From Desulfotruncus alcoholivorax DSM 16058 (lineage in GTDB: Bacteria > Bacillota > Desulfotomaculia > Desulfotomaculales > Desulfallaceae): DNA of 32,000 nucleotides. The position numbers were made by a program, and so were the translations under genes. The stretch lies in assembly GCF_000430885.1 (NCBI RefSeq), contig NZ_AUMW01000032.1:1-32000 (forward strand). Reading direction: 5' to 3'. Below, one piece after another: positions 646-17,358 of this stretch. The notes under the pieces are model-generated. The model searched no databases. It saw nothing but the letters and a program-made list of their open reading frames with translations, and was not told the DNA's origin. Numbering within the stretch: position 1 is the first letter of the stretch; every line of letters begins with the position of its first letter.

Positions 646-1112
646 TTGTTCCTTTATCAAAGAAACTGCTGCAGACATGTATATCAAGAAATTATTAACA
701 ACCAAATTGCCTACATCATGTTCATTGCCCAGATATCAAAAATTGAATCCATAAGGGCACTGGCCGAATGGGTAACAAATGATACTGACCTTCAAGACAA
801 TCTAAAGCTTGATTCAATCAGTGCATCACAGTTATCCAGGCGGCTTAAAGAGATGAGCAGTGACTTCTGGAGAACCGTGTTTACACAAGTAGCCAAAATT
901 GCAATACAAAAGACCACCAATCATTTAAGTGCCACCCCCATGCCGACCGTGTCCATGTAATTGATTCCAGCACCATCACCCTTTGCCTTAACAGTTACTT
1001 ATAGGCCGATTACCGTAAAACAAAAGCAGGTGTAAAAATTCATCAATGATTGGTATACCAAAACGGTTATTCTTACCCTGAAAGAGCCATTCTTGCAACA
1101 CTACTGAAATAA
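646..1112 (+). pseudogene. Decayed N-terminal fragment of an IS4-family (DUF4372-type) transposase
   Basis: ORF 646-960 reads ...IAQISKIESIRALAEWVTNDTDLQDNLKLDSISASQLSRRLKEM.... The reading continues in another frame from about 948 as RVHVIDSSTITLCLNSYL*ADYRKTKAGVKIHQ*LVYQNGYSYPE. This is the typical IS4 'xIDSTTIxLC...W/FRKTKxGVKxH' block, interrupted by an in-frame TAG (1002-1004) and TGA (1047-1049). A further frame change is likely near 700. The DDE core is absent. Confidence 0.6.
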
Positions 1113-3292: not shown

Positions 3293-3328
3293 AAAATAAC
3301 ACCTCCTGCCATATCTTAACAAGAGGTG
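3291..3328 (-). terminator. Rho-independent terminator downstream of the pilin gene
   Basis: The minus strand reads CACCUCUUG-(11 nt loop)-CAGGAGGUG, a 9-bp stem with one G-U pair, followed by UUAUUUUUU. It lies 55 nt after the pilin stop. Confidence 0.45.
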
Positions 3329-3383: not shown

Positions 3384-3791
3384 TTACCAGGTAATAGGTA
3401 ATGACACCGCTGAAGTAGGGGTAAACCAAGCCCCCGTGTTAGAACCTTTTGTAACAGTAGCCCTAAAAGGAGCGCTTGTGGTTATACTATAAATTACCCC
3501 ATCAGGGCCAGTAGGCCAAGTTGCTAGATAATTGGGTACTAAATCAGGATTATCACCTGAAAAAGTAGGTGCAGTCGTTGTATTACCTGTATTAGCTTGA
3601 TATTGCATAATTGCACCGTCAATTGTTCTTAAATTTGCCTCAACTGCCGCTCGATTAGCTTTTGCTGTCGTCGAATTATACACCGGCACTGCTATTGCCG
3701 CCAAAATACCGATAATAACCACAACCACCATCAGTTCCACCAGGGTGAAGCCTTTACGGTTTTTCAGCGCATAACTAATTCTTTGAATCAC
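3384..3791 (-). CDS. pilA: Type IV pilin (prepilin-type N-terminal cleavage/methylation domain)
   Basis: There is a class III signal, ...KNRKG|FTLVELMVVVVIIGILAAIAVP, with Gly-1, Phe+1 and Glu+5. I chose GTG 3791 as start because GGGAGGTG sits 6 nt upstream. The track's TTG 3809 has no SD. Confidence 0.9.
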   Translation of the reverse strand: MIQRISYALKNRKGFTLVELMVVVVIIGILAAIAVPVYNSTTAKANRAAVEANLRTIDGAIMQYQANTGNTTTAPTFSGDNPDLVPNYLATWPTGPDGVIYSITTSAPFRATVTKGSNTGAWFTPTSAVSLPITW

Positions 3792-4004
3792 ATTATTCAC
3801 CTCCCTCAATAATTAATTGGTCAAGCACAAAAATTATTTTGTGCTGCCTTATTTATGCATTCTAACTTAAGTTATACCTGGAAAAATTAATTTTAGACAC
3901 TTAAATTAAAATAATTTTTCAATAAGTTTTTATTATCACCCGTGGGCGCCGTTTAACCTTCAACCGTTTTCCCCACAAGGGCATACCCCCGGCTACCCGC
4001 CTGA

Positions 4005-5309
4005 TTACCCGCCGGATGAGCTGGTTGACCCGCCTGATGACCCGCCTGACCCGACGCCTATTTCGTTGATCAAATCTTTAATCAACTGAGCTTTGTCGGG
4101 GGTTTCTTCCACCCACAAAACATATATTCTGTTCTTACTATCGATGGTGTCAGCGATATTCCCGGAAATGTGAAAGCTGCTCGTGGAGACGCCGGAAAGT
4201 TCACTTAGCAAACTGCGCATTGAGTTTACCTGGTTATAACTGCCGGTCAGCAACGGCACTTTGGTTTTTTCCCGGGTCTGGTCCAGGCTCACCAAGGCTG
4301 TCCGTACCCGGGTCTCCAGGTATGGCGGGCAGATAACCAGCAACTCATGGCCGAAGCGGTCATAGTTATATGCTTCAGACTTAACATCGGTAAAACCGAA
4401 TTCATCCAACCGTTTTTTAGCATCCCCGGCCACGATATTTTTTAATTGGAAAATGAATGCTTTATTCTTTTGGCCTGAATTTACGTCCAGCTGTTGCGCC
4501 AGCTTTTGCAGTTCCTCCCAGCGGGGGAACAATTCCCGGTCAAATACCAAAAGCCGGTTGTCTAAAATCACGTAACGTTTAAAAACCACACCCGCTCCGG
4601 CCATCAATTCGACCAGGCGGTCGGGTGTAATTGAATAGGTGGTTAAGGTTTTATGTTCCAGGGAAAGCTGGTTTTCCTTCTCATCCACCGCGTAGATGAG
4701 CTCCCGGACTTTTTGCAAAGTTTGCGCGGTTCCCTGAACCCAAATGGCATTAGGATTTGTATCCACCGTAATGTCGGTCTGGTCGATCCCAAGCTGACCG
4801 ATTAATTCTTTCATTTTATCCGCCGTGATATAATACAGGTCGAATTTGACCAGCAGCATCTGGTTGAAGAAATCACTCTTTAACGTCCCCGGGTCGCCGA
4901 CCACGATGATGTTGCCGTTCTGCAGGTAAGCCATTTTTTGGCTTTCAATGATTAGTTCAAGGGCTTTCCTGGCCGTTATATTGTCAGCCTTAAAATCTAT
5001 ACGTACCGGTTCGGATTTGGTCAGTATTATATTTACACCCAATTTGACGGCCAGCGCCGATAGAATATCCCTCAGGTCGGTATCCCTGACCTCCAATGAG
5101 ATTACACCGCCGTCCCCGGTAAACAGGGAGTCACTCACCCCGGCGGTGGCAGACCAGGCGGGTGTGCCTGTAAAATCCTCCGCTCCCGCGTCCGGATAGC
5201 CGTCGGCATAGGCCCTGCCGCATGACAACAGCGTCAATAGCAGGACAGCGGCCATAAAAATCAAAGCTCTCTCCGCAAAATTGATCCTATAACAGGTGTC
5301 CCGCCTCAA
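4005..5309 (-). CDS. Secretin N-domain (N0 plus repeated N1/ring-building-like domains) protein without a secretin beta-barrel; signal peptide with possible lipobox
   Basis: The N-terminus has a signal peptide, ...AAVLLLTLLSCGRAYA, with lipobox-like LLSC or an AYA|D cleavage site. Residues about 69-138 (VISLEVRDTDLRDILSALAVKLGVNIILTKSEPVRIDFKADNITARKALELIIESQKMAYLQNGNIIVVG) look like the PilQ/GspD N0 (STN-type) domain. About four ~70-aa repeats of the secretin_N pattern follow (e.g. FDLYYITADKMKELIGQLGI..VDTNPNAIWVQGTAQTLQKVRELIYAVD). The protein ends in a Gly/Ser tail. No ~250-aa secretin domain is present here or downstream. The TTG start overlaps the upstream stop (TTGA). Confidence 0.65.
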   Translation of the reverse strand: MRRDTCYRINFAERALIFMAAVLLLTLLSCGRAYADGYPDAGAEDFTGTPAWSATAGVSDSLFTGDGGVISLEVRDTDLRDILSALAVKLGVNIILTKSEPVRIDFKADNITARKALELIIESQKMAYLQNGNIIVVGDPGTLKSDFFNQMLLVKFDLYYITADKMKELIGQLGIDQTDITVDTNPNAIWVQGTAQTLQKVRELIYAVDEKENQLSLEHKTLTTYSITPDRLVELMAGAGVVFKRYVILDNRLLVFDRELFPRWEELQKLAQQLDVNSGQKNKAFIFQLKNIVAGDAKKRLDEFGFTDVKSEAYNYDRFGHELLVICPPYLETRVRTALVSLDQTREKTKVPLLTGSYNQVNSMRSLLSELSGVSTSSFHISGNIADTIDSKNRIYVLWVEETPDKAQLIKDLINEIGVGSGGSSGGSTSSSGG

Positions 5310-5887
5310 TTACCGTCACTCCCTTGCCCGCCTGCCGGCTGTTTTTGGTCTGCTGAATTCTGCGCCGCATTTTGATTGTTGTTTGGATTAACATTAACCC
5401 GGCCGTTGAATTTGAGTTCCAGGGACTGGTTGCCTGCTGTTAATATTACTGCATTCTTTTTGATCTCTTTTACTTTCCAACCGCCTTGGAGTTCTTCCCC
5501 CACTTTGACTACATAAGCAGTGTTGCCGGCTTCAATAATGGCCAGGTCGCCTCCATAACCCCCGTTGATAATTCCTTTAAGTTTCAGGGCGACATTAAAC
5601 GGATCCCGGACTTCCTGCCCGGTCTCCATTTTCCTTTTTAGTTCCGGTAAAAACGTGCTGGATGTCTTGGCGGCGTCCGGCTGCCCGGTGTCGTCTGTGA
5701 CAGTGCTTTGCTGTCCTTCCTGTTTGTTTTGAGATTCCTTGATAAAATTGTAATTTAGTTTAATTATGTAGATAAGACCGGCAAGGATAATAAAAACACA
5801 TACCACAACAATGAAAGTTTTCTTTTTATCCTTTTTCAATAATGTTTCAAGTTGTTTGAATAAATCTTTAATATTTTTGCCGGGCAA
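5306..5887 (-). CDS. PilP/GspC-HR-like bitopic pilus assembly protein
   Basis: One N-terminal TM helix (TFIVVVCVFIILAGLIYII) is followed by a low-complexity linker. Then comes RDPFNVALKLKGIINGGYGGDLAIIEAGNTAYVVKVGEELQGGWKVKEIKKNAVILTAGNQSLEL, the 'RDPF...L.GI....AII....Y.V.vGd.l.ggwkV..I....V.L' pattern of PilP / GspC homology-region domains. TTG 5887 is preceded by AAGGAGTG at 7 nt. Confidence 0.6.
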   Translation of the reverse strand: MPGKNIKDLFKQLETLLKKDKKKTFIVVVCVFIILAGLIYIIKLNYNFIKESQNKQEGQQSTVTDDTGQPDAAKTSSTFLPELKRKMETGQEVRDPFNVALKLKGIINGGYGGDLAIIEAGNTAYVVKVGEELQGGWKVKEIKKNAVILTAGNQSLELKFNGRVNVNPNNNQNAAQNSADQKQPAGGQGSDGN

Positions 5888-5929: not shown

Positions 5930-6460
5930 TCATTGGGCAAGGTAAAATACGCTGACTGATAAATCTGCCTTGAGATAGGCCGGGTCCTGGCTGTCTTTGG
6001 CCAATTTAACGGCATCAATGCGCATAGCCCTGGTGCCGTTTTGCAAACCGGTGATCAAATTGAACAAATCATTAAAACTACCCCGGCATGTCAGATTTAA
6101 CGGCATTTCCACATAACCTTTTTGGGTCACGCGCTCTTGAAAATTTATTTGCAACAGGTCCACGCCCGCTTGCGCAAAAATACTGTTGATTTGCTCAATT
6201 AGATTATTCTCCCCGGGGCCGGCCGGCAGCGCTTTTTCTATTTGCGCCGATTTTTCCCGCAATTCGGCTGACTTGTCCTTTAATTGAATTAAATTCTGCA
6301 GCCTGGTCCGGGCTTGGGCCAGGGCGTCGCGGTTGGCGGCCAATTCCGCACGCGCGCTTTTCAATGCGTTGATCTGGTTAAAGAGTAAAAAGCAAACCAG
6401 TAACAAAACCGCAACCCCGGAGAGCAGAACCAGCTTATCTTTCCGCTGCATACCATTCAT
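5930..6460 (-). CDS. pilO: Type IV pilus assembly protein PilO
   Basis: The architecture (N-terminal TM, coiled-coil, C-terminal ferredoxin-like domain) and the position after pilN fit PilO. The start overlaps the pilN stop (TAATG). Confidence 0.8.
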   Translation of the reverse strand: MNGMQRKDKLVLLSGVAVLLLVCFLLFNQINALKSARAELAANRDALAQARTRLQNLIQLKDKSAELREKSAQIEKALPAGPGENNLIEQINSIFAQAGVDLLQINFQERVTQKGYVEMPLNLTCRGSFNDLFNLITGLQNGTRAMRIDAVKLAKDSQDPAYLKADLSVSVFYLAQ

Positions 6461-7191
6461 TATTGGTTGACCACCGCCGTTCCACCCGCGGCAGGTACGG
6501 AAAGTCCGGGTAAAAGTTTCGCCTTGATTTCAAAACGAACGACAATTTCCCCGTCCAAATCTTCCTGGGACAACACCCGGCAGCTTGCTCCGGTTAGTCC
6601 CTTGACCTTACGAATATTGTTCAACATTTCAGCCGCGGCAAGCCGGTCGACCGCATACCCCGTGATAACTACCTCCCCGTCAAGCGGGGCTTCCTCATTT
6701 TGCCCCGGATTCATGCCCAGCACACTGCTTATTTTTGCTCCGGTATCAGCCGCCTTATTTCCAGCCGGTTTGCTTTCTGCCGCCTGCCCCACCGGCTGTG
6801 TTGCGGCTTTTGCCGTGCCCTGCCGGTAAGCGGCGGTAAAGTCAGCCAGCCAAACGCCGGGCGGCATATACTGCCCCAGATCGTACAAAATGCCAACCCA
6901 ATCGGGCGGGGCCCCCATAGCCTGCTTCAATATTTCTTGCCCATGATCAACCCGGGCCTGCAGATCGGCATATTGCTCCAGATCGGGGAATTTTTTCAGC
7001 AATGCTTCTCTTTCTTTGGCCAATTCGGCCGCATCCCCCCTGGCTTGCCAGGTTGCCACCAATAAAATGCCAAATACAAGCAGCAAAACAATACCTGCCA
7101 GGCTGCCGGCCGCCACCAGTTTCTGCTGCTTTTGCTTCAGTTCCCACTGTAATTTAATTTCAGGCGGCAATAAATTTATGTTTACATACAT
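6460..7191 (-). CDS. pilN: Type IV pilus assembly protein PilN
   Basis: The N-terminus MYVNINLLPPE carries the conserved INLLP PilM-binding motif, followed by one TM helix. There is a long low-complexity insert before the C-terminal domain. Confidence 0.85.
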   Translation of the reverse strand: MYVNINLLPPEIKLQWELKQKQQKLVAAGSLAGIVLLLVFGILLVATWQARGDAAELAKEREALLKKFPDLEQYADLQARVDHGQEILKQAMGAPPDWVGILYDLGQYMPPGVWLADFTAAYRQGTAKAATQPVGQAAESKPAGNKAADTGAKISSVLGMNPGQNEEAPLDGEVVITGYAVDRLAAAEMLNNIRKVKGLTGASCRVLSQEDLDGEIVVRFEIKAKLLPGLSVPAAGGTAVVNQ

Positions 7192-7194
7192 GCT

Positions 7195-8364
7195 TCAGGT
7201 CTCCATTCCCCTTAACGCCAGCCCCACGGCCACGGCAAAATCAGGGCCTTCTTGATGCCAATCGATATTGCGCGCGTTGACCGCGCCCTTAAAAGACACC
7301 GCCGGGTTGATTACTTCAACCGGTATGTCCAGTTCTGAATTTAATAATTCCCTTACACCTTCGGCCCGCGCCCCGCACCCGCTGAGAAACAGGCAGTCGA
7401 CAGTAACTGATTCCCGCTGGGCTAAATAAAAGCCAATGGATGATCTGATCTCCTCCGCCACTGCCCCGGCCCAGCTATACCAGGCGTTGACGGGCAATTC
7501 CACCGGTTTACGCTCTTGCTCCAAGCTAATATCACCCGGAGTAAAGCCATCCGGCTTGCTTTCGACCGCATAGGTGAAAGAATCCTGCTCAGTCTCCGGT
7601 ATCAGGTCACCGGGTAAAAAAATATCCGGCATGTTATCAGCAGCATGAGCAGAAGCCACCTGCCGCTCACTTTGCAATACTATATCAGCAAAATAATTAT
7701 CTTGATCTAAAGCAACCTGCAAATTGGTCGGGATTATTCTGACAAAACGGGGGATTCCCCCTGTTACCAACATCAGCGAGGTTATTCCATTGGAAATATC
7801 GGCGAATATGGTCGTACCCGCCAACCTGCTTTCAGGCACCGTGCGCATCAAGGCAAGGGGCGAGGCATCCACAATCCTGGGCGTCAAAGCTGCGCTGGAT
7901 ATGGCCTGCAGGCTTTTATCCAGCATATCCCGCCTTACGGCAACCATCAGCACTTCCAACCGCGGTCCGGTTTCACCTTGCGTTTCGCCTACAACGGCAA
8001 AATCCAGCATCATTTCCGTAACCGGTATGGGGAAATAGTCACCGGCCTGGAAACGCAGCATTTTATCCAGTTTGCTGAGCTCAATTTTGGGGAAATCAGC
8101 CAGGCGCATCAACACTCCTTGATTTGACACACCCAGCACCACTTCCCGGCTGCCGATACGATAACGGTCCCATAACTCCTTCAGCGCTCCGGTAACAGTT
8201 GCAACGTCTTCAATAACCCCTTCCACTATTGCTTCTTCCGGAATCTCGATTTGTTCCGCTTTGACCAGGTCGGCCGTGCGCAGCGTGCCGGTTATTTCGA
8301 CGGCACGGATAACCCCCGTTTCCAATTGCAGTCCCACCGCGCTTTTTTTTCTTAGAAATTTCAA
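7195..8364 (-). CDS. pilM: Type IV pilus assembly ATP-binding protein PilM (actin-like)
   Basis: The N-terminus reads KKSAVGLQLETGVIRAVEI...GVIEDVATVTGALKELW..LGVSNQGVLMRL.DFP, typical of PilM. The start is TTG 8364 with GAAGG 6 nt upstream. Confidence 0.9.
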   Translation of the reverse strand: MKFLRKKSAVGLQLETGVIRAVEITGTLRTADLVKAEQIEIPEEAIVEGVIEDVATVTGALKELWDRYRIGSREVVLGVSNQGVLMRLADFPKIELSKLDKMLRFQAGDYFPIPVTEMMLDFAVVGETQGETGPRLEVLMVAVRRDMLDKSLQAISSAALTPRIVDASPLALMRTVPESRLAGTTIFADISNGITSLMLVTGGIPRFVRIIPTNLQVALDQDNYFADIVLQSERQVASAHAADNMPDIFLPGDLIPETEQDSFTYAVESKPDGFTPGDISLEQERKPVELPVNAWYSWAGAVAEEIRSSIGFYLAQRESVTVDCLFLSGCGARAEGVRELLNSELDIPVEVINPAVSFKGAVNARNIDWHQEGPDFAVAVGLALRGMET

Positions 8365-8401: not shown

Positions 8402-9097
8402 TCAGGAAAAAAACCTGGCCAACAGTTCCAAGCTCTTTTTCAGCAAGCGGGAAACCTTTCGCTGGCTGACACCCAGGGCTTCCGCCGTTTCTCTTTGGGT
8501 CAGGCCATGATAAAAAAGCGCTTCTATCACTTTGCGCTGTATCTTTGACAGCTTGTCCAATGCCATTTTCAAGGCAATGCGGTCCTCTATCGGCAAGGTA
8601 AAACTTTCGTACCTCAAGCTGTGGATTTGTGAAATATCTATCTCATCTATGGAGACCCAGCCCGCGCGCATGGCTTGCAGCACGCCTTCTTCGCGCACGT
8701 TCAATGCACCGGCGATCTGGGCTATGGACGGCACTTCGCCGTTCAACTGCAAGTGGTCTTCGATGACCCGGTTGACCTTTTCCTGCAATTCAGCCACCCA
8801 AGCCGGCCGGTCAAAGGTTGCTTCCCGGCGGATCAAATGGCGCATTTCACCCATGATATAATGGCCGGCATAGGTGCTGAAAGACACTCCCCGGCTCCGG
8901 TCATAGCGTTTCGCCGCTTTAAGCAAACCCTCAAAGCCGGCCTGAAGAAGATCTTCTTTGCTTTGCCCGGGAGCATAGATATTGGCAAAATAATGCACAA
9001 GCCCGGTTCCTGCTACTACCAGTTCATGCAAGGCGGTTTCATCCTTGGCCTGCAGGTATGCCTCCATGGCTGCTTCAATTTTGGGGTAACCATTCAT
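8402..9097 (-). CDS. Group-3 sigma-70 family sigma factor (SigB/F/G-FliA-like)
   Basis: Region 2 reads DLLQAGFEGLLKAAKRYDRSRGVSFSTYAGHYIMGEMRHLIRR. Region 3 reads PSIAQIAGALNVREEGV. Region 4.2 HTH reads LTQRETAEALGVSQRKVSRLLKKSL. ATG 9097 has GGGAGG 6 nt upstream, inside the last codons of pilC. Confidence 0.9.
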   Translation of the reverse strand: MNGYPKIEAAMEAYLQAKDETALHELVVAGTGLVHYFANIYAPGQSKEDLLQAGFEGLLKAAKRYDRSRGVSFSTYAGHYIMGEMRHLIRREATFDRPAWVAELQEKVNRVIEDHLQLNGEVPSIAQIAGALNVREEGVLQAMRAGWVSIDEIDISQIHSLRYESFTLPIEDRIALKMALDKLSKIQRKVIEALFYHGLTQRETAEALGVSQRKVSRLLKKSLELLARFFS

Positions 9098-9100
9098 CTT

Positions 9101-10309
9101 TTACCTCCCTACTGAAGTCACCACGGTAAAGATAGGCAAGTAAACGGCTATTACAATGGAGCCGATGGTAATGCCCACAACTATCAGCAGCACCGGTTCC
9201 AACATGGCAGTCAGCCCCTTGGTCATGGCTGCCACTTCTTCCTCGTAAAAATCGGCCACCCGCCCCAGCAGAGTGGAAAGCTGGCCGGTTTCCTCGCCGA
9301 CGGCCACCATGTTAACCAGCATGGGCGGGAAAAATTCGCTCTTTTTCAGTAAAGAAGCTATACTTTGCCCTTCCTGGATGCCTTGGCCCGCCTGTTTGAC
9401 CGCCTCGGCAACCTGGATGCTGCCGGAGGCCGGGCCGGCCGCTTCCAGCGCCTGCAACACCGGGATGCCTCCGGACAGGAGGGTGGATAAAGTGCGTGAA
9501 AAGGCGGCGACGGTTGTTTTTTTAAAAAGCTCCCCCAGCACCGGCAGCCTGAACCTGAGTATATCCCATGCTTTCTTGCCGTTTGGGCCGGATAGATAGT
9601 AACGCAAACCAAAAATAAATCCGATCATCCCCAGGAAGCACAAATACCAGTAACTGCGCAGCACATTGCTGACCCCCACAACAATTCTGGTCGGCAGCGG
9701 CAGGCTGACGCCTTCCGGAAAGAAGCCGACAAAAATGGGGACAACGAACAACATCAGCGCCATGACCACGCAAAAAGCAAATATCAAAACCACCGACGGG
9801 TAAAAGGTGGCGGCCCGGATTTGGTCCTTCAGGTGTTTGCTGCGCTCCAGCTGGTCGGACAGCCGCCTTAGCATTTCTTCGATGGAACCGCTGATTTCAC
9901 CAGCTTTGATCATATCAACATACATGGAGGAAAAAGTTTCCGGGTATGCCCGCAGCGCATCGGAAAAACTGGCGCCGCTTTCCACGCTTCTGGCCACTTC
10001 ACCGATAATGTTGCTCAAAGTTGGGTTACTTGTCTGCTCCTGCAGGGTGAAAAGACAACGGGTCAGCGGGATGCCGGCGACGAGCATGGCCGCCAGCTGG
10101 CGGCTGAAAAAACTGATATCGCCGGTCTTTATTTTGCGCCGCCTGAACAAGGTGAAGGTAAAAGAAGTATTTTTCACCTCCGCCAGGTCTATGACCATGT
10201 AACCCATTTTCCGCAACTTGGCGACAGCGGAATTTTCCTGCTCCGCCTCCATTTTTCCGGATACCGGCACGCCTTTTGCGTCTATGGCTTCATATGTGTA
10301 AAGGGGCAT
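9101..10309 (-). CDS. pilC: Type IV pilus platform protein PilC (GspF family)
   Basis: Two T2SSF repeats are present, with the typical FSRQLA.ML.AGIPL and AFSRTLSTLLSGGIPVLQAL motifs, plus three TM segments. The ATG has an AGGAAGG SD. Confidence 0.95.
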   Translation of the reverse strand: MPLYTYEAIDAKGVPVSGKMEAEQENSAVAKLRKMGYMVIDLAEVKNTSFTFTLFRRRKIKTGDISFFSRQLAAMLVAGIPLTRCLFTLQEQTSNPTLSNIIGEVARSVESGASFSDALRAYPETFSSMYVDMIKAGEISGSIEEMLRRLSDQLERSKHLKDQIRAATFYPSVVLIFAFCVVMALMLFVVPIFVGFFPEGVSLPLPTRIVVGVSNVLRSYWYLCFLGMIGFIFGLRYYLSGPNGKKAWDILRFRLPVLGELFKKTTVAAFSRTLSTLLSGGIPVLQALEAAGPASGSIQVAEAVKQAGQGIQEGQSIASLLKKSEFFPPMLVNMVAVGEETGQLSTLLGRVADFYEEEVAAMTKGLTAMLEPVLLIVVGITIGSIVIAVYLPIFTVVTSVGR

Positions 10310-10329: not shown

Positions 10330-11415
10330 TTAAAAAGGTATATTTTTCTTCAAGGCCCGTTCCAGCTCAATACGGTCAACCGCCTTAATCAAGGCGTTTT
10401 CTCTGGAAATCAACCCGGACAGGCACAATTCGGCCAGGGCCTGGTCCATGGTTTGCATCCCCACATTGCGGCCGGTTTGCATAACCGTGTACAGCTGGTA
10501 TTCTTTACCTTCCCTGATTAAATTTTTAACCGCCGGGGTGGCCCAAAGTATTTCAACGGCGGCCACTCTGCCTTTGCCGTCAGCCCGGGGAATCAACTGC
10601 TGCGCCACAACGGATTGCAATGAATCGGAAAGCTGCTGCCTGATCTGGTTGCGGATGCCCTCCGGGAAAACGTCGACAATCCGGTGGATGGCCAGGGGCG
10701 CCGTTTGGGTGTGCAGCGTGGAAAAGACCAGGTGCCCGGTTTCAGCTGCGGTTAGCGCTATGGAGATACTTTCCATGTCCCTCATTTCACCGATTAAAAT
10801 AACGTCGGGGTCGTGGCGCAACACATGCTTTAGGGCCGCGGCAAAAGAATGGGTATCGCTGCCCACCTCGCGCTGCTTGATAATGGATTTCTTGTGGCTA
10901 TGTAAAAATTCAATGGGGTCTTCTACGGTAACTATGTTAAGGCAACGGTTTTCGTTGATCAGGTTTATAATTGATGCCAGTGTGGTTGATTTGCCGCTGC
11001 CTGTCGGGCCGGTCACCAGAACCAGGCCGCGTGGCAACCTGGCAATATTTTTCGCCGATGCCGGCAAGCCTAGGCTTTCAAATTTGGGGATTTCCATGGC
11101 CACCACCCTGAAATTAACCGCCAGCGAGCCACGCTGCCACATGATATTGCCCCGGAACCGGCTTAAGCCCGGTACGGAGTAGGAGAAGTCCAGTTCCAGC
11201 TCCTTTTCCAGGCGGTCCTTTTGCTTGGGCGTAAGGATTGCATATACCAGTTGCTCTATATCCTGCGGCATTAGCCGGGGCATATCCGTCGTTACCAGTT
11301 CACCGTTGATCCTGATTACAGGCGGCTTGCCGGCAGTCAGGTGTAAATCGGAACCATTCATTTTAACTGTACGGGTGAGAATTTCATTCATGTCCAGCCC
11401 CGCTTGCGAACTCAT
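10330..11415 (-). CDS. pilT: Twitching-motility retraction ATPase PilT
   Basis: The ORF is 361 aa. It has Walker A GPTGSGKSTT, Walker B/Asp box VILIGEMRD, a His box TGHLVFSTLHT and the PilT-specific AIHRIVDVFP motif. The start overlaps the pilB stop (ATGA). Confidence 0.95.
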   Translation of the reverse strand: MSSQAGLDMNEILTRTVKMNGSDLHLTAGKPPVIRINGELVTTDMPRLMPQDIEQLVYAILTPKQKDRLEKELELDFSYSVPGLSRFRGNIMWQRGSLAVNFRVVAMEIPKFESLGLPASAKNIARLPRGLVLVTGPTGSGKSTTLASIINLINENRCLNIVTVEDPIEFLHSHKKSIIKQREVGSDTHSFAAALKHVLRHDPDVILIGEMRDMESISIALTAAETGHLVFSTLHTQTAPLAIHRIVDVFPEGIRNQIRQQLSDSLQSVVAQQLIPRADGKGRVAAVEILWATPAVKNLIREGKEYQLYTVMQTGRNVGMQTMDQALAELCLSGLISRENALIKAVDRIELERALKKNIPF

Positions 11416-13082
11416 AATATCACCCTCATTAACTCTTCCAATGAAGTAATTCCTTGCTTTACCTTGATCAGTCCGTCCTGGCGGAGTGTGATCATTCCCT
11501 CGGCTATTGCAGCTTCCTTGATCTCCCTGGCCGGCCTGCGTTCCAGGGCCAGGCGCTGAATAGTTTCCGTCACAAACAGAAGTTCATAAATACCTGTGCG
11601 GCCCCGGTACCCGGTATTACTGCAGCGTATGCACCCCACGGGACGGTATAGTTTTACCCGGTCCTCTCCTTCATTAAAAGGAAAATCCGGTATATCCCCA
11701 AGCTCATCTCGCGTTATTTCGTATTCTTGTTTACAGTTCCGGCATAAAACCCGGGCCAGGCGCTGGGCTAAGATACAGACAATTGATGAAGCAGTTAAAA
11801 AAGGTTCAATACCCATTTCGGTCAGGCGGCTGATGGCGCCGGCCGCATCATTCGTATGCAGGGTGGAAAAAACCAGATGACCGGTTAAAGCAGCTTCAAT
11901 GGCCAACTTGGCTGTTTCCTGATCTCTTATTTCGCCTACCATGATAATATCCGGGTCACTCCGTAATATGGAGCGCAACCCGGATGCAAAAGTGAGACCG
12001 GCCTTGGGATTGATTTGTATCTGGTTAATGCCTTCCATGCGGTATTCAACCGGGTCTTCCACAGTGATAACATTTTTGGCCACCCTGTCCACGGTAATCA
12101 GGCTGGCATATAAACTTGTGCTTTTGCCGCTGCCGGTCGGGCCTGTAACCAGGATGCAGCCGTAGGGCATATTGATGGCATCCCGGTATTTTTGCAATAC
12201 CACTTGCTCAAGCCCCAATTCCTCCAGAGTTATTATTTTGGCCGACCGGTCCAGCAGCCGCAGGGTCAGTCGCTCGCCAAAACTTGCGGGCAGTGAAGCT
12301 ACCCTGGCGTCAATGGTGCGGCCCTCAATTTTAATGGACATACGGCCGTCCTGGGGAATTCTGCGCTCGGCAATGTTCATATTGGCCATTATTTTTATGC
12401 GCGAAACCAGCGAAGCGTGCATTTTCCTGGAAAGCTGCATCATATCATGCAAAACACCGTCAATTCTGAAACGTATCCTCAGCTGGCTTTCGTAAACTTC
12501 GATATGCACATCGCTGGCCTTGGCGTTCACAGCCTGGACCAAGATCATGTTGGCCAGTTGAACCGCAGGCTTAACTTCAGCGTCGCCTGCTTCAATATCA
12601 ACATCTTCTTCCGGCAGTTGTTCATCCGCTGATTGTTCAAACTCCAAATTAACCCGGCTGTATTTTTCCAGTGCCGCGCTGAATTCACTGTCCGGTACGA
12701 CTACCGGCTTGATATCATAGCCGGTTAATATGCGTATATCATCAATAGCCATAACGTTGTTGGGATGCTGCATGGCTACCAGCAGCTTATCCCCGCTAAA
12801 GCCAATGGGCAGTGCTTTATATTTTCTCTGGGCCTCCGTGGGCAACTTGGCTACGGCAGACGGGTCAATCGGGAATGTTTCAAGTGATACAAAAGGTATC
12901 CCGGCCCGTTTGGCCATAACCCTGGCGATATCTTCCTCCTTGCAATAACCTAAATCCACCAGGGCTTTGCCCAGAAAAACCCGGTTGGTTTTTTGATATT
13001 CCAATGCCTGTTCCAGTTGTTTCTGAGTAATGACCCCTTCTTGAACCAACCGGGAACCCAGAAAATCTTTGGTTAATTTCAT
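11412..13082 (-). CDS. pilB: Type IV pilus extension ATPase PilB (GspE family) with MshEN-type N-terminal domain
   Basis: It has Walker A GPTGSGKSTS, IIMVGEIRD, TGHLVFSTLHTN and a tetracysteine motif CRNCK...CIRCSNTGYRGR. I chose ATG 13082 (MKLTKDFLG...) because GGAGGA sits 4 nt upstream. The ATG at 13097 has its SD too close. Confidence 0.95.
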   Translation of the reverse strand: MKLTKDFLGSRLVQEGVITQKQLEQALEYQKTNRVFLGKALVDLGYCKEEDIARVMAKRAGIPFVSLETFPIDPSAVAKLPTEAQRKYKALPIGFSGDKLLVAMQHPNNVMAIDDIRILTGYDIKPVVVPDSEFSAALEKYSRVNLEFEQSADEQLPEEDVDIEAGDAEVKPAVQLANMILVQAVNAKASDVHIEVYESQLRIRFRIDGVLHDMMQLSRKMHASLVSRIKIMANMNIAERRIPQDGRMSIKIEGRTIDARVASLPASFGERLTLRLLDRSAKIITLEELGLEQVVLQKYRDAINMPYGCILVTGPTGSGKSTSLYASLITVDRVAKNVITVEDPVEYRMEGINQIQINPKAGLTFASGLRSILRSDPDIIMVGEIRDQETAKLAIEAALTGHLVFSTLHTNDAAGAISRLTEMGIEPFLTASSIVCILAQRLARVLCRNCKQEYEITRDELGDIPDFPFNEGEDRVKLYRPVGCIRCSNTGYRGRTGIYELLFVTETIQRLALERRPAREIKEAAIAEGMITLRQDGLIKVKQGITSLEELMRVIL

Positions 13083-13204
13083 CCAATCCTCCGACATTCT
13101 CCCTGATTATTAAATTAATTTCAAGAAAAAGAAACATATACCTGCTTATTGCGCAAAAATATCAATTGTTATAATCTGTTATTTTAATAACCACATATAC
13201 TAAT

Positions 13205-13240
13205 AAAATAAAAAAGCACGATACTTTTCAGTGATCGTGC
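13205..13240 (-). terminator. Intrinsic terminator forming the expression platform of the riboswitch leader
   Basis: The minus strand reads GCACGAUCAC-UGAAAA-GUAUCGUGC, a 9-bp stem with one bulged C, followed by UUUUUUAUUUUAUU. It lies about 120 nt upstream of the pilB start. Confidence 0.7.
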
Positions 13241-13330
13241 CTGGTAGTTCGACTGCCGTAGCTTATGCCTTAGGCCCGCAACTTTGCGCCCGCTTCTTTC
13301 GAAACGTTTGCCTTTTTCAGACTCTAAACG
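13241..13330 (-). promoter_or_regulatory. Class I cyclic-di-GMP riboswitch aptamer (GEMM-I)
   Basis: The minus-strand RNA is CGUUUAGAGUCUGAAAAAGGCAAACGUUUCGAAAGAAGCGGGCGCAAAGUUGCGGGCCUAAGGCAUAAGCUACGGCAGUCGAACUACCAG. It contains GGCAAAC, then a 6-bp hairpin capped by a GAAA tetraloop, then GGGCGCAAAG, then a CCUAAG...UACGG tetraloop-receptor-like pair, then a 3' ..CUACC. Order and spacing match what I remember for V. cholerae Vc2 (GGGCAAACCAUUCGAAAGAGUGGGACGCAAAGCC..CCUAA..GGUUACC). No covariance-model search was run. Confidence 0.7.
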
Positions 13331-13351: not shown

Positions 13352-13380
13352 ATTATAAATATAAATTATTTTAATTACAA
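13352..13380 (-). promoter_or_regulatory. Candidate sigma-A promoter driving the riboswitch-pilB operon
   Basis: The minus strand reads TTGTAA-17 nt-TATAAT in an AT-rich stretch. The predicted start site is about 15 nt upstream of the aptamer. Confidence 0.5.
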
Positions 13381-13573: not shown

Positions 13574-14782
13574 TTATTCTATGGAACTGATCGCACTGAA
13601 CATAGGCAGCATGATGGCTATGACAATAAAGCCCACCACTCCTCCCAAAACTACTATCAACACCGGTTCTATAACTGATGACAGGCGGGCTACTTTATCC
13701 TCAACCTCCCGCTCATAATACACGGCCAGCTTTTCCAGCATGGCATCCAGCGCGCCGGTTTCCTCCCCGATAGAGATCATGCTCGTCACCATGGGCGGAA
13801 AAACGCCGCTTTGCTGTAAAGGTTGAGCAATTCCCTCTCCCCTTTGCACACAATCTGCCGCCTTTGCTATAGCTCTCTCCACAATTGAGTTTGCCACAAC
13901 TTTTTTTACCACGTCGAACGACTGAAGCAGCGGCACTCCGCTGGACAGCAGCAGCGCCAGGGTGCGGGCAAACCTGGCAATAATTATGCGTTTTATCAAC
14001 GCACCGAAAACGGGTAATCTCATTAGAAGATTATCTGTTACCAGGCGGCCTTTTGATGTTGCGGAAAGTTTTTTACAGGCCAGCCCAAAAGCAACAACAG
14101 TTCCCGCAAACAAGTACCAATAATGGCGTACGTCGACGCTTGCCTTTAGCACCAGCCTGGTTGCGGCCGGAAGTTCAAGGTTGTTGCCGGCCAGCATGGC
14201 AGTAAATGAAGGAAGCACAAAAACGAGCAATGCCGCCACAGCTAAAACAGCAGCCGCCAGTACAGTCGCAGGGTAAGTCATAGCTGACTTTACTTTTTCA
14301 CGTAAATCGTGCTCCTTTTCAAAATGCTCAGCCAGGCGTTCCAAAACCCGGTCGAGCGTGCCGCTTATTTCTCCCGCTTCAAGCATACTGGCAAAAATCC
14401 GGGGGAATACCCCGGGGTAAAGACGGGCCGCTTCCGCCAGTGACCGCCCCTTTTCCAGCATGGCTGCCATACCCTTTACCGCCTGAACGAGCGTTTTATT
14501 GTCATTCTGCCTGGCTAGAATGTCCAGGCATTGCAGAATCGGAACTCCGCTGCCAATCATGGCGGCAAACTGGCGGCAAAAGGGGGCAAGTTCCTTTGCG
14601 CCAACTCCGGGTGCCAAAAGGTTTACCCCCAAACTCTTTTGTTGCCCCGGTGTTACCTCTAAAGCAAATAATCTTTTATTCCTGAGCAAAGACGCTGCAG
14701 CCCCTGCACTTTCCGCGCCGATGCTCCCCCGGACGATCCTGCCCTGATGATTTCTGGCCCTGTAATCATAGATCCGGGTCAT
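13574..14782 (-). CDS. Second GspF/PilC-family platform protein
   Basis: Two T2SSF repeats are present (FCRQFAAMIGSGVPILQCL; FARTLALLLSSGVPLLQSF). I chose ATG 14782 (MTRIYDYRA...) because it follows GAGGA. The track's GTG 14800 has no SD. Confidence 0.9.
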   Translation of the reverse strand: MTRIYDYRARNHQGRIVRGSIGAESAGAAASLLRNKRLFALEVTPGQQKSLGVNLLAPGVGAKELAPFCRQFAAMIGSGVPILQCLDILARQNDNKTLVQAVKGMAAMLEKGRSLAEAARLYPGVFPRIFASMLEAGEISGTLDRVLERLAEHFEKEHDLREKVKSAMTYPATVLAAAVLAVAALLVFVLPSFTAMLAGNNLELPAATRLVLKASVDVRHYWYLFAGTVVAFGLACKKLSATSKGRLVTDNLLMRLPVFGALIKRIIIARFARTLALLLSSGVPLLQSFDVVKKVVANSIVERAIAKAADCVQRGEGIAQPLQQSGVFPPMVTSMISIGEETGALDAMLEKLAVYYEREVEDKVARLSSVIEPVLIVVLGGVVGFIVIAIMLPMFSAISSIE

Positions 14783-14801
14783 TAAATCCTCGCCTTTCAC
14801 A

Positions 14802-16256
14802 CTAATCTTCTGAATATGTGACGCGCATAACTTCCTGCAATGTTGTCAGCCCTTGCAATGCTTTCTCAATACCATCTTGTTTCAGTGAAACCAGGCCGCA
14901 GCCAACGGCTTTTTCCCTCAGCTCGTCAGCAGCGGCATTTTTGACAATTAACTGGCGCAGCCCCGAGTTCACCACCAAAACCTCATGAATCGGCAATCGC
15001 CCGCTATAACCGGTATAACCACACTTATCGCAGCCCTTACCGCGGTATAGCTTGACCACTTCAGTTTGACTGACATTTATAAACCGTCTTTCAGGTGCGT
15101 CCGTCTCCAGGTAGTAATCCTCTTTGCAATGCAGGCAAATAACCCGCACCAGCCGCTGGGCCACTACCCCCAGAACTGATGCGGCCACCAGAAAAGACTC
15201 GGCGCCCATATCCAAAAGACAGGTAATCGCCCCGATAGCGTCATTGGTGTGCATGGTTGATAACACCAGGTGCCCGGTATTGGCTGCACGGATGGCTATG
15301 CGGGCAGTTTCTTTGTCCCTTATTTCCCCCACCATAATAATATCCGGATCCTGGCGCAATATTGAGCGCAAACCGGCGGCGAAAGTCATTCCAGCCTTAT
15401 AGTTGACCTGGGTTTGGTTTATACCTTCAAGCAAGTATTCCACCGGGTCTTCCACGGTAACGATATTCTTTTCCAAATCATTGAGCTGGTTGAGGGCGGC
15501 ATACATGGTGGTGGTTTTCCCGCTGCCGGTGGGTCCGGTTAAAAGCACCATCCCATGGCTGTTGCACAATAACTTTTTAAACAAGTTTAGATTTTTCTCG
15601 GAAAAACCGATTTGTTTAAGTGTATAAGCAGTTATGTCGGATCTGTCGAGCAAACGGGCCACCACCTTTTCACCGTAGACGGTAGGCAGGGTGGAAACAC
15701 GCAAATCGATTTCCCTTCGTTCCAATATCAGTTGAATCCGGCCGTCCTGCGGCAAACGTTTTTCCGCAATATCCATAGCAGACATGATTTTGATTCTGGA
15801 TATTACCGCCCCCATGTCTTTACGCGGCAGCTGCATCTTTTGACGCAGCATGCCGTCAATCCTGAAGCGGACCCGAATACCTCTCGCATTTGGCTCAAAA
15901 TGAATGTCGCTGGCTTTTTCTTCAATAGCCTGAATGAAAATAGAATTGACCAGGCGGATAACCGGAGCGTCACTGGCCATGGTTTCTTCTTTGAGGCTCA
16001 TTGCTTCATAATCCTGTGTACTATAATCCTGGTCATCTTTAGCAACCTGTTCAATATTCTTCAGGGATTCTTTCCGGTCGCCGGCAAGTTGCTCAATATC
16101 AGCCTCGGAGGCAAAGCCGAGCTTGATTAATATCCGGCCTAATTTTTCGCCGGTTTTTGTTTGGACCCTGATGGCCTCCCACAACTGTTCTTTGGTTATG
16201 ATTCCTTTTTCAATCAGTTGGTAACCTAAAATTTTCTTGGATGAGGGAATGTCCAT
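14802..16256 (-). CDS. Second GspE/PilB-family assembly ATPase with MshEN-type N-terminus
   Basis: It has Walker A GPTGSGKTTT, IIMVGEIRD, TGHLVLSTMHTN and CLHCK...CDKCGYTGYSGR. The start is set at ATG 16256 (MDIPSSKK...), 9 nt after an AAGGAG that overlaps the aroB stop. The track's 16361 start would overlap aroB by 90 nt. Confidence 0.9.
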   Translation of the reverse strand: MDIPSSKKILGYQLIEKGIITKEQLWEAIRVQTKTGEKLGRILIKLGFASEADIEQLAGDRKESLKNIEQVAKDDQDYSTQDYEAMSLKEETMASDAPVIRLVNSIFIQAIEEKASDIHFEPNARGIRVRFRIDGMLRQKMQLPRKDMGAVISRIKIMSAMDIAEKRLPQDGRIQLILERREIDLRVSTLPTVYGEKVVARLLDRSDITAYTLKQIGFSEKNLNLFKKLLCNSHGMVLLTGPTGSGKTTTMYAALNQLNDLEKNIVTVEDPVEYLLEGINQTQVNYKAGMTFAAGLRSILRQDPDIIMVGEIRDKETARIAIRAANTGHLVLSTMHTNDAIGAITCLLDMGAESFLVAASVLGVVAQRLVRVICLHCKEDYYLETDAPERRFINVSQTEVVKLYRGKGCDKCGYTGYSGRLPIHEVLVVNSGLRQLIVKNAAADELREKAVGCGLVSLKQDGIEKALQGLTTLQEVMRVTYSED

Positions 16257-16269
16257 ACCCGCCATCTCC

Positions 16270-17358
16270 TTACAAGCGCAGCGAATCCAATGCCAGCTTA
16301 ATTTTCTCCGCAGGCATGTTTTTATAAACCATAGCCTTACCGATACCGGCAGGCAGCACATAATTAATCTGCCCGCCGAAATTCTTTTTATCCCCGTACA
16401 TGGATCGCACCAGTTCCATTGTTGCCAGGTCCTTTGGCACAGCCACCGGGAGCTTTGCCCGTAAAAGCAGGTTTTTTATCCTTTTCTCCTCGCTCTCCTG
16501 CAACATGCCCAGTTCCGCCGCCAGCCTTGCCGCTACCGTTGTGCCGATGGAAACTGCCTCTCCGTGGCGGAAACGACCGTAGCCGGCAATGGCCTCGATG
16601 GCATGTCCAACAGTGTGACCAAGGTTTAAAATGGCCCGGTTCCCCTGCTCGGTTTCGTCAGCCTCCACCACCCTGGCCTTATTCAGGCAGGAACGTTCGA
16701 TTACATAGGCCATGGCGCCGGGCTCCAGCACCAGCACGCGATGGATATTGGCCTCAAGCCACTCAAAAAAAGCAGGGTCGCTGATAATCCCGTATTTAAT
16801 TACTTCCGCCAAGCCAGAGCGGATTTCCCCGGCGTCCAGGGTATGCAGCGTAGCAGGGTCTGTCAGCACCAAGGCCGGCTGGTAGAAAGCCCCGATAATG
16901 TTTTTTCCCCGTGGATGGTTTACCGCAACCTTGCCGCCAACGCTGCTGTCCACCTGGGCAAGCAAAGTGGTGGGCAGCTGTACAAATGGCACGCCCCGCA
17001 TGTAGGTTGCAGCCACAAAGCCGGCCAGGTCGCCCACAACACCGCCGCCCAGAGCCAGCACCGGGCAGCGCCGGTCCAAGCCTGCGGAAAAAGCGCAGTC
17101 GTAAAGCATTTCCGCGCTATGCAGTGTCTTATATTCCTCCCCGTCGGGAATTTCAGCAACAATGATTTCCAGGCCTGCCTGCTCCAGGCTGGCGGTAACC
17201 CGTTCGGCAAAGAGGGCTCCTACGGTGGGATTGGTTACAAGCAGCGCCTTGCGCCCGCCAAATAAGCCGGCCACGTGGCCGCCGGCCTGATCCAACGCCC
17301 CGCCACCGATGATTATTTTATAAGTCCGCTGTCCCAGGTTAATTACAACTTCTCTCAT
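16270..17358 (-). CDS. aroB: 3-dehydroquinate synthase
   Basis: The ORF is 362 aa. Motifs GGGVVGDLAGFVAATYMRGVPFVQLPTTLLAQVDSSVGGK and LNLGHTVGHAIE are typical of AroB. Confidence 0.95.
   Translation of the reverse strand: MREVVINLGQRTYKIIIGGGALDQAGGHVAGLFGGRKALLVTNPTVGALFAERVTASLEQAGLEIIVAEIPDGEEYKTLHSAEMLYDCAFSAGLDRRCPVLALGGGVVGDLAGFVAATYMRGVPFVQLPTTLLAQVDSSVGGKVAVNHPRGKNIIGAFYQPALVLTDPATLHTLDAGEIRSGLAEVIKYGIISDPAFFEWLEANIHRVLVLEPGAMAYVIERSCLNKARVVEADETEQGNRAILNLGHTVGHAIEAIAGYGRFRHGEAVSIGTTVAARLAAELGMLQESEEKRIKNLLLRAKLPVAVPKDLATMELVRSMYGDKKNFGGQINYVLPAGIGKAMVYKNMPAEKIKLALDSLRL

Follow-up and report, generated by a model that had tools for sequence, protein, structure and literature searches.

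Why should the gene for an alternative sigma factor lie in the middle of an operon encoding the type IV pilus machinery? The question is raised by a 32,000-nucleotide stretch of DNA from the Bacillota species Desulfotruncus alcoholivorax DSM 16058 (contig NZ_AUMW01000032.1, positions 1 to 32,000; referred to below as the window), in which a sigma-70 family protein is encoded between pilC and pilM. An initial annotation, made from the sequence of the window, had proposed a cascade in which cyclic di-GMP (c-di-GMP) controls the operon, the operon supplies the sigma factor and the sigma factor drives the promoter of a separate pilin gene. The computational analysis described here lends that cascade good support in silico, from the linkage of the sigma gene to pilus clusters, from a shared motif upstream of the pilin gene and from the placement of riboswitches. 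We put at roughly three in four the probability that the protein is a dedicated pilin sigma factor, produced from the machinery transcript under c-di-GMP control and driving the major pilin gene.

When one genome was scanned for each GTDB species, 90 were found to encode a relative of the window sigma factor. Eighty of these loci (numbered with the prefix L) were fetched with approximately 10 kb on each side, and the Pil proteins of the window were mapped onto them by tblastn. Genes of the pil cluster flank the sigma gene in 78 of the 80, the exceptions being L064, where the contig is only 2.4 kb long, and L077, where no pil gene was detected in about 10 kb of downstream sequence. The pilC-sigma-pilM order of the window recurs in 47/80 loci, and pilC lies immediately upstream of the sigma gene in seven more. 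A second arrangement, pilT-pilC-pilM-N-O-pilB-sigma, is found in 12 loci, with the pilin gene coming next wherever the contig extends far enough. Eleven further loci were fetched using PilM as the anchor: six encode a sigma factor of intact length, its gene being divergent from the pilin gene in one of them (L086), and one (L210) a sigma factor that lacks region 3. Some of the metagenome-assembled genomes (MAGs) carry labels outside the Bacillota (Acidobacteriota, Sumerlaeota, Dehalococcoidia and others) that may reflect binning errors. The check suggested by the initial annotation, whether orthologous pilus loci keep the gene, is thereby answered in the affirmative at species level, and a chance insertion of a SigB/F/G-type gene can be rejected on these comparisons because its context is too well conserved. 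Inserts of 3.5–4 kb that separate the sigma gene from pilM in some loci were considered as a source of partner genes for the sigma factor and set aside: the insert in L015 consists of genes for minor pilins and for a PilX-like protein, and genes of these families turn up again in the other loci with inserts.

If the sigma factor serves the pilus, where might it act? Counting k-mers without a prior model in the upstream regions (320 nt each) of 34 major pilin genes returned GGTATAA in 31 and GTCTAA in 29 of the 34 regions, with no other non-trivial word coming close. When aligned, the two words form a bipartite motif, TGTCTAAA-N12/13-GGTATAAC, located 67–150 nt ahead of the mature pilin codons, or more than 300 nt ahead where a riboswitch intervenes. 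The initial annotation had recommended a search for a shared motif upstream of pilin-like genes; within the ~10 kb flanks of the sigma gene, this one precedes the major pilin gene in 50 of the 56 loci with a visible major-type pilin, and five of the 11 PilM-anchored loci combine an exact copy with an intact sigma gene. A relaxed pattern (GTCTA-N13-17-GGTATA), searched for on both strands of all loci and the window (2.2 Mb), gave 52 matches compared with about three expected at equal base frequencies, and never more than one match per locus. All matches with a resolvable downstream open reading frame (ORF) directly precede a prepilin gene, the exception being L033, whose motif and pilin gene are separated by a riboswitch. 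Conservation extends to bases that the pattern does not specify: a T precedes GTCTA in 51/52 matches, an A follows GGTATA in 51/51 and the next base is C in 42/51. Neither the GG nor the TGTCTAA block varies among the motif copies, and the spacer between the two blocks is variable in sequence.

The window contains a single exact copy at 3872–3898 (3871–3899 with the flanking T and C) and no second copy in its 32 kb, even when two mismatches are allowed. No copy was found before minor pilin or machinery genes in the 80+ loci searched. Autoregulation of the sigma gene was considered and discarded, as there is no motif upstream of either the sigma gene or its operon. The one copy lies upstream of the gene that had been singled out as a candidate target, the separately transcribed pilin gene; this gene is set off by 213 nt from the preceding Secretin_N gene and would form a monocistronic unit because a strong terminator follows it. 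A 9-bp hairpin (AGCACAAAA-uaau-UUUUGUGCU, 3824–3845) in the predicted 5' untranslated region of the pilin gene, between the promoter and the Shine–Dalgarno sequence, was examined and not retained, since its z-score of −1.9 is not significant.

The pilin promoter had initially been described as having no good −35 element. This holds for elements of the sigma-A type, the upstream block agreeing with the TTGACA hexamer at only 2/6 positions, but a conserved alternative −35-like block is present. SigB/F-type promoters have the consensus GTTTAA-N12-15-GGGTAT. Written as GTCTAA-N14/15-GGTATAA, the predicted promoter shares the geometry of that consensus and differs in its bases, an architecture that would suit a protein of the SigB/F class. 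As a reciprocal test, metagenome contigs were scanned with the motif alone. At least 122 instances were found, at least 17 of them with a prepilin gene within 600 nt, and at least ten of those stretches also encode the sigma factor; most of the matches listed are on AT-rich contigs and look like chance occurrences. We infer that the motif is a promoter and that it is the embedded sigma factor, rather than another one, that reads it.

Loci in which the sigma gene is missing or altered bear on the same point. Two whose synteny with the window takes in aro genes, pilBTC, pilMNO and pilin, L082 (Desulfohalotomaculum tongense) and L085, have neither sigma gene nor motif; their pilC–pilM gaps measure 33 and 23 nt, respectively, and in L085 the pilin gene abuts the gene before it. 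A more distant pilus cluster, L083, likewise lacks both, with about 30 nt between the pilin gene and the preceding ORF. In L210 the sigma protein (5151–5753, 200 amino acids) has had region 3 replaced by an unrelated middle segment. Its pilin promoter (9770–9815) keeps TGTCTAAA, but the −10 region now reads TGATATAAT (cTGATATAAT), a perfect extended −10 element for sigma-A; this looks like rewiring of the promoter after decay of the sigma factor. L047, with an intact sigma gene, has a one-base variant of the motif (GGCATAAC). Overall, an intact sigma gene is accompanied by an exact motif in 49 loci and by the variant in one, compared with 1/5 loci with a motif where the sigma gene is absent or defective (Fisher p = 7e-5, uncorrected for shared ancestry). 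The comparison supports the view that the motif tracks the sigma gene, with one exception (L084).

The c-di-GMP layer of the proposed cascade also holds up across many lineages, with aptamers of the GEMM-I class found before the sigma-containing operon, before the sigma gene itself or in the pilin leader. In the window, the aptamer in the pilB leader falls within the GEMM-I clan (CL00126), scoring 61.5 bits with RF03167 (gathering score 59, E 2e-12) and 100 bits with a custom covariance model (R1). Rfam also places GEMM-I aptamers upstream of pilB in L001, L003, L005 and L008, those of L001, L003 and L005 reaching RF01051 at 49–72 bits compared with a threshold of 35, and finds none upstream of pilB in L006, L007 and L022. 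The custom model, built from seven aptamer instances and run on 88 sources, detected 50 aptamers, in four kinds of position: (a) before pilB at the head of the sigma-containing operon, in the window and six loci, and likewise in L082 and L085, which have no sigma gene; (b) immediately ahead of the sigma gene or a chimeric neighbour of it (described below), in 17 loci; (c) in the pilin leader, between motif and start codon, in about 11 loci including L076 (a Thermoleophilia MAG); and (d) before other pilus genes or genes for secreted proteins. Eleven loci of classes (b) and (c) submitted to Rfam scored as canonical c-di-GMP-I aptamers at 63–85 bits (threshold 35), with two aptamers scoring best as the GGC variant at 61–62 bits (threshold 59). 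In one clade the sigma gene has a riboswitch and the pilin gene has both the sigma-type promoter and a second riboswitch, which would amount to a literal feed-forward loop. The wiring of the window would be a simple cascade from riboswitch to operon, sigma factor included, and on to the pilin promoter.

The match of the window aptamer to RF03167 carries a GGC-variant label. The variant is defined by one column, CGC(A/G)AAG, as read from the model consensus, and the window aptamer, with CGCAAAG, has A instead of the G of the variant model. A also stands at this column in all seven aligned relatives and in the relatives that Rfam calls canonical c-di-GMP-I. The window aptamer thus probably binds c-di-GMP as a canonical sensor, and its variant label is probably an artefact of scoring.

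Additional GEMM-I aptamers were seen at L015:2824-2921, L023:2606-2703, L056:210-418 (tandem), L061:3126-3410 (tandem), L039:13058-13157 and L040:6876-6957, preceding genes close to the pilus clusters for putative secreted proteins, a T2SSC-like protein or a large minor pilin. They point to dense riboswitch control of these loci by c-di-GMP.

What kind of sigma factor is this? Membership of the sigma-70 superfamily is clear (TIGR02937, 95.8 bits, cut-off 42.9), and Pfam detects Sigma70_r2 (E 2e-12) and Sigma70_r4 (E 1.2e-12). Region 3 is more weakly matched: Sigma70_r3 scores 30.2 bits (cut-off 25.3) over positions 3–44 of the 78 in the profile only, with no single stretch passing alone. Its presence, which together with the lack of region 1.1 defines group 3, is supported by this match and by an alignment of residues 18–224 to sigma-F (1L0O_C). 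The initial description of a 231 amino acid protein with regions 2, 3 and 4 is accurate, with the reservation about region 3.

The further description of the protein as SigB/F/G-like is right as to its nearest relatives by sequence, but the protein falls below the curated cut-offs of these families. The best NCBIfam match is to the SigB/F/G subfamily (TIGR02980, 129.1 bits, cut-off 234.35), followed by the SigF model NF005644 (PRK07408; 114.8 bits, cut-off 261), which we take to be cyanobacterial-type SigF. Scores against the equivalog models are also below threshold (sporulation SigF, 103 against 321; SigB, 102 against 315; SigG, 83–93 against 372–457), as is that against FliA/WhiG (TIGR02479, 84.7 bits against 189.6), and no curated NCBIfam family threshold is reached. 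Among solved structures, a profile of the family matches sigma-F best (1L0O_C, 137 bits, E 4e-39), then 8X6G_H (125 bits), a 256 amino acid sigma factor that we take to be Staphylococcus SigB, with WhiG third at 74 bits and FliA at 55–64 bits. The recognition helix of region 4.2 is specific to the family (SQRKVSR, compared with SQVQMSR in sigma-F and SQMHVSR in 8X6G_H), and the family alignment shows no variation at Q212, R213, S216 and R217.

About 85 homologues share 45–85% identity, after which scores drop sharply. They include proteins from Desulfotruncus (Desulfotomaculum) arcticus (L001, 80% identical to the window protein), Pelotomaculum thermopropionicum, Sporotomaculum, Heliobacterium, Dethiobacter and many MAGs; the family is also present in contigs binned to Actinomycetota. 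A search with the family profile returned family members only (335 proteins at E ≤ 1e-20), and the best 120 of the 335, all scoring at least 341 bits, carry generic names alone ('RNA polymerase sigma-B factor', 'sigma-70 family'). No specific name was found for the family in the NCBIfam models or homologue annotations searched. By its sequence, the window protein is a member of a distinct, unnamed, divergent SigB/F/G-like family of group-3 sigma factors, which a label such as 'RNA polymerase sigma-B factor' misrepresents.

The sigma gene is closely packed between its neighbours (Table 1). On the minus strand, which the initial annotation left unstated in an otherwise correct description of the gene, pilC ends ...GTA GGG AGG TAA, with its stop codon at 9101–9103 and the sigma ATG 3 nt further on. 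As previously noted, the GGGAGG Shine–Dalgarno sequence (9104–9109) coincides with the final two sense codons of pilC and lies 6 nt ahead of the ATG, and the sigma stop codon (TGA, 8402–8404) precedes the pilM start (TTG, 8364) by 37 nt. The locus has the composition of a type IVa pilus cluster, Pfam detecting PilB, PilT, PilC, PilM, PilN, PilO and a prepilin with an N-methylation motif. Neighbouring genes in the stretch from pilB to the Secretin_N gene overlap by as much as 4 nt or stand up to 42 nt apart, and a terminator scan over the same interval found no convincing terminator between genes; with the GEMM-I aptamer ahead of pilB, these features agree with the earlier view that the sigma gene is co-transcribed with the pilus genes under a c-di-GMP leader.

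Table 1. Features of the pilus locus in the window, in order of transcription
Feature	Position	Strand	Evidence and remarks
Sigma-A-like promoter TTGTAA-17-TATAAT, candidate operon promoter	13352..13380	minus	Consensus scan, 10/12; consensus match only
GEMM-I (c-di-GMP-I class) aptamer, pilB leader	13239..13321	minus	Rfam RF03167
Intrinsic terminator hairpin GGCACGAU...AUCGUGCU and U-run, expression platform	13204..13242	minus	Minimum free energy fold and centroid
pilB, assembly ATPase, MshEN and T2SSE	11412..13097	minus	Pfam E 9e-134
pilT, retraction ATPase	10330..11415	minus	Pfam T2SSE E 1e-48
pilC, platform protein	9101..10309	minus	Pfam T2SSF E 2e-63
Sigma gene	8402..9097	minus	ATG start, 231 amino acids, Pfam r2/r3/r4; group-3 sigma factor, pilus-cluster-linked family
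pilM	7195..8364	minus	Pfam PilM_2 E 1e-33
pilN	6460..7191	minus	Pfam PilN E 2e-6
pilO	5930..6460	minus	Pfam PilO E 5e-16
T2SSC/PilP-like bitopic protein	5306..5887	minus	Pfam T2SSC E 6e-7; conserved in 26 loci
Secretin_N protein, last machinery-operon gene	4005..5309	minus	Pfam Secretin_N E 9e-12; conserved in 34 loci
Predicted sigma-dependent pilin promoter TGTCTAAAATTAATTTTTCCAGGTATAAC: -35-like block, 14 nt, -10-like block	3871..3899	minus	Motif match
Major prepilin gene, GTG start, leader MIQRISYALKNRKG then FTLVELM	3384..3791	minus	Pfam N_methyl E 2e-10
Strong intrinsic terminator past the pilin gene, 12-bp stem and T-run	3300..3328	minus	Terminator scan

Some other features of the window may be recorded here. 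The Secretin_N protein (434 amino acids) has no detected secretin C-domain, and the 34 loci in which it is conserved belong to presumed monoderm bacteria. A second pilB/pilC pair (519 and 408 amino acids; 13574–16361, minus strand) lies directly upstream of the riboswitch-headed operon; pilT, pilMNO and pilin genes belonging to this pair are absent from the window, and the longest ORF for this second pilB overlaps the 3' end of aroB. PilM is 376–398 amino acids long in the window and its closest relatives, compared with 335–355 in most homologues, the additional residues, judged by eye, apparently forming a central insertion that is acidic and rich in proline. Two further features are unconnected to the pilus locus: a gene for a 255 amino acid protein of three tandem XRE-type helix-turn-helix domains (22332–23099, minus strand) and a DUF772 transposase fragment near the start of the window (646–960, plus strand).

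How, then, might the locus work? We propose that a sigma-A-type promoter would drive the machinery operon and that the c-di-GMP-I riboswitch and terminator in the leader would gate its transcript, with c-di-GMP presumably turning the operon on rather than off. The sigma factor would then be made alongside the Pil proteins from a single mRNA (pilB-pilT-pilC-sigma-pilM-pilN-pilO and two further genes) and would bring core RNA polymerase to one nearby promoter, the TGTCTAAA-N12/13-GGTATAAC element at 3871–3899. High-level transcription of the monocistronic major pilin gene would follow, ending at the terminator at 3300–3328. Placing the sigma gene in the machinery operon would couple bulk pilin synthesis to expression of the assembly machine.

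Several observations weigh against this proposal. The link between sigma factor and motif is correlative and the loci compared are phylogenetically related. In L084 (Desulfoscipio sp.) the sigma gene is a pseudogene (9606–10001), an internal deletion having joined residues 1–60 out of frame to about 196–245, and yet the exact pilin motif is kept (14755–14785). The decay is probably recent, because in its close relatives L003 and L004 the gene is intact and the promoter nearly identical; the motif of L084 fits either an orphaned promoter or a pilin promoter read by another sigma factor. Within the −10 block is the sequence TATAAC, at a spacing of 17 nt from TGTCTA, a configuration that sigma-A might use together with an activator. 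In the leader fold, no clear anti-terminator is seen and the base of the terminator hairpin overlaps the 3' strand of aptamer stem P1 by only 2–3 nt, a fold that points to neither an ON nor an OFF switch. An unlinked anti-sigma factor may exist, and the motif search, reaching about 10 kb to each side of the sigma gene, leaves room for a larger regulon.

The last of these points leads to an alternative in which the sigma factor has many targets scattered over the genome, forming a c-di-GMP or surface-lifestyle regulon that takes in adhesins, exopolysaccharide and other pilus genes, and the pilin gene is merely the nearest and most conserved of them. Group-3 sigma factors usually have multi-gene regulons, and the GEMM-I aptamers before secreted-protein genes near some clusters hint at a wider c-di-GMP programme. 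In cyanobacteria, SigF is reported to control other genes in addition to pilA1 (Asayama and Imamura 2008, PMC2532724). Within the reach of the search, however, the motif occurs at most once per locus in more than 80 loci, the visible downstream gene is the major pilin gene, and minor pilin and machinery genes are without it; nor did a second recurrent target class stand out among the metagenome matches listed, those not followed by a prepilin gene looking like chance matches on AT-rich contigs. We regard a wider regulon as unlikely, if by no means negligible.

Very unlikely, in our estimation, is that the motif is read by some other factor, be it an unlinked sigma factor of the SigB/F/G type or sigma-A aided by an activator bound at TGTCTAAA, leaving the embedded sigma factor to serve another purpose. 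The retention of the motif in L084 and the TATAAC at sigma-A spacing from TGTCTA would be accounted for in this way, and clostridial SigB has −10 boxes of the GGTAWA type. It fits poorly with the co-occurrence of motif and sigma gene in at least 50 species-level loci and with the lack of the motif from three sigma-less loci, two of them syntenic with the window. Nor does it explain why degeneration of the sigma factor in L210 coincides with the change from GG-TATAAC to TG-A-TATAAT, or why the GG and TGTCTAA are invariant, unlike TTGACA. As for an ordinary stress or sporulation paralogue of SigB, SigF or SigG that reached the pil operon by chance, the best profiles are those of SigB/F/G and the best solved structure is sigma-F, but the protein is far below every curated SigB, SigF and SigG cut-off, lacks linked anti-sigma or STAS genes and is kept, with several gene orders, in the pilus clusters of some 90 species; this idea is effectively refuted.

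If the embedded protein is indeed a dedicated pilin sigma factor, what holds it in check? The initial annotation had noted that no anti-sigma or anti-anti-sigma gene is adjacent, and the observation can be extended. No HATPase-type anti-sigma factor or STAS protein was found among the window ORFs scanned, whose domains are unrelated to such partners (obvious housekeeping genes having been identified by eye only), and when all ORFs from the 80 loci were clustered into families no kinase-type anti-sigma factor or STAS protein appeared among those conserved around the sigma gene. The linked partner-switching module of SigB/F/G systems is thus missing from both data sets. The families that do recur are PilC, PilB/T, PilM, pilins, Secretin_N and T2SSC-like proteins, PilD and PilN/O, together with shikimate-pathway genes in 8–9 loci. 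We infer that no anti-sigma factor is involved.

In the clustering, PilN/O merged with the sigma family itself through a chimeric protein, whose gene lies just upstream of the sigma gene in 11 loci (L029, L033, L050–L053, L059, L064, L070, L078 and the PilM-anchored L087), several of them MAGs labelled Syntrophomonadaceae. The chimera is 350–370 amino acids long, has no obvious transmembrane segment and often has its own c-di-GMP-I riboswitch. In that of L033 (8628–9704, plus strand), residues 1–206 are 46% identical to the neighbouring sigma factor, covering regions 2–3 without the region 4.2 helix, and the last ~150 residues are 29% identical to the PilO of the same locus (E 6e-17). A 351 amino acid gene in the chimera position in L211 and a riboswitch-preceded, sigma-like ORF of 358 amino acids in L077 are probably chimeras as well.

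It is tempting to speculate that the chimera serves as a decoy that binds core RNA polymerase or as a link to the pilus machine. More broadly, this family and cyanobacterial SigF might together represent an ancient, pilin-specific sigma lineage of the Terrabacteria, perhaps kept in check by the pilus machine in place of a classical anti-sigma factor, a scenario that we consider rather doubtful. Were it true, the sigma-PilO chimera could work as a decoy for core RNA polymerase or by sensing how far pilus assembly has gone, giving type IV pili a counterpart of the FliA-FlgM checkpoint.

Type IV pilus regulation in monoderm anaerobes (syntrophs, sulfate reducers, heliobacteria and the deep-subsurface Desulforudis) has, to our knowledge, hardly been studied. 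The open-access literature yielded no paper on a sigma factor embedded in Firmicute type IV pilus loci, nor on the pilin promoter motif, and a survey of type IV pili never mentions a sigma factor (Imam et al. 2011, PMC3244431). On the present proposal, a sigma family that has no name of its own would have a definite function and a well-defined promoter, with c-di-GMP riboswitches acting at up to three levels of the cascade: the sigma-like chimera, the sigma factor itself and the pilin leader. The motif could serve as a marker for major pilin genes in metagenomes, and the sigma factor and its promoter could form an orthogonal expression module.

How does the proposed arrangement compare with known systems? 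In Clostridioides difficile, a c-di-GMP-II ON switch lies upstream of pilA1 (McKee et al. 2018, PMC6200980). A c-di-GMP riboswitch in the leader of a Firmicute type IV pilus transcript is common to both; here, however, it is of class I (GEMM-I) and heads the machinery-plus-sigma operon or, elsewhere, the sigma gene and pilin leader separately, and a dedicated sigma factor is proposed to stand between c-di-GMP and the pilin gene. A parallel in function is the group-3 SigF of cyanobacteria, which is reported to transcribe the Synechocystis pilA1 promoter through elements at −32 (TAGGC) and −12 (GGTAA) (Asayama and Imamura 2008). The two share a group-3 sigma factor, a major type IV pilin as signature target (predicted here) and a GGTA core in the −10/−12 element. 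They differ in the upstream element (GTCTAA here, TAGGC there) and in the setting of the sigma gene, the cyanobacterial sigF lying outside the pil operon and autoregulating, whereas here the gene is inside the operon and no motif precedes either.

SigB, SigF and SigG (TIGR02980) are the closest relatives by sequence, with the same domain layout and a promoter geometry that the predicted pilin promoter resembles. They are controlled by the partner-switching modules RsbW/RsbV and SpoIIAB/SpoIIAA. The window protein is some 20–30 residues shorter than these, has a different region 4.2 helix and no linked anti-sigma kinase or STAS gene, and its predicted role is in pilin expression rather than in the stress response or sporulation. 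Streptomyces sigma-WhiG is a group-3 sigma factor held by RsiG, an anti-sigma factor that binds c-di-GMP (PDB 6PFV/6PFJ). It is likewise tied to c-di-GMP, although its coupling is post-translational, through RsiG, whereas here riboswitches are predicted to provide the coupling, at the level of RNA, and the sigma gene has no RsiG-like gene linked to it.

A further functional parallel is sigma-D of Bacillus subtilis, a member of the FliA/WhiG family whose gene lies towards the end of the fla/che machinery operon; it drives the flagellin gene hag and recognises the promoter TAAA-N15-GCCGATAT. In both cases an alternative sigma factor is encoded within the operon for a filament machine and a separate, monocistronic gene for the major subunit is its target (predicted here), so that machinery comes first and subunit second. 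The differences are that the filament here is a type IV pilus and not a flagellum, the sigma factor is not a FliA/WhiG member, the promoter is GTCTAA-N14-GGTATAA and there is no linked FlgM-like anti-sigma factor. The proposal would thus extend to type IV pili the arrangement known from sigma-D and flagellin, with a sigma gene in the machinery operon and the subunit gene as its target.

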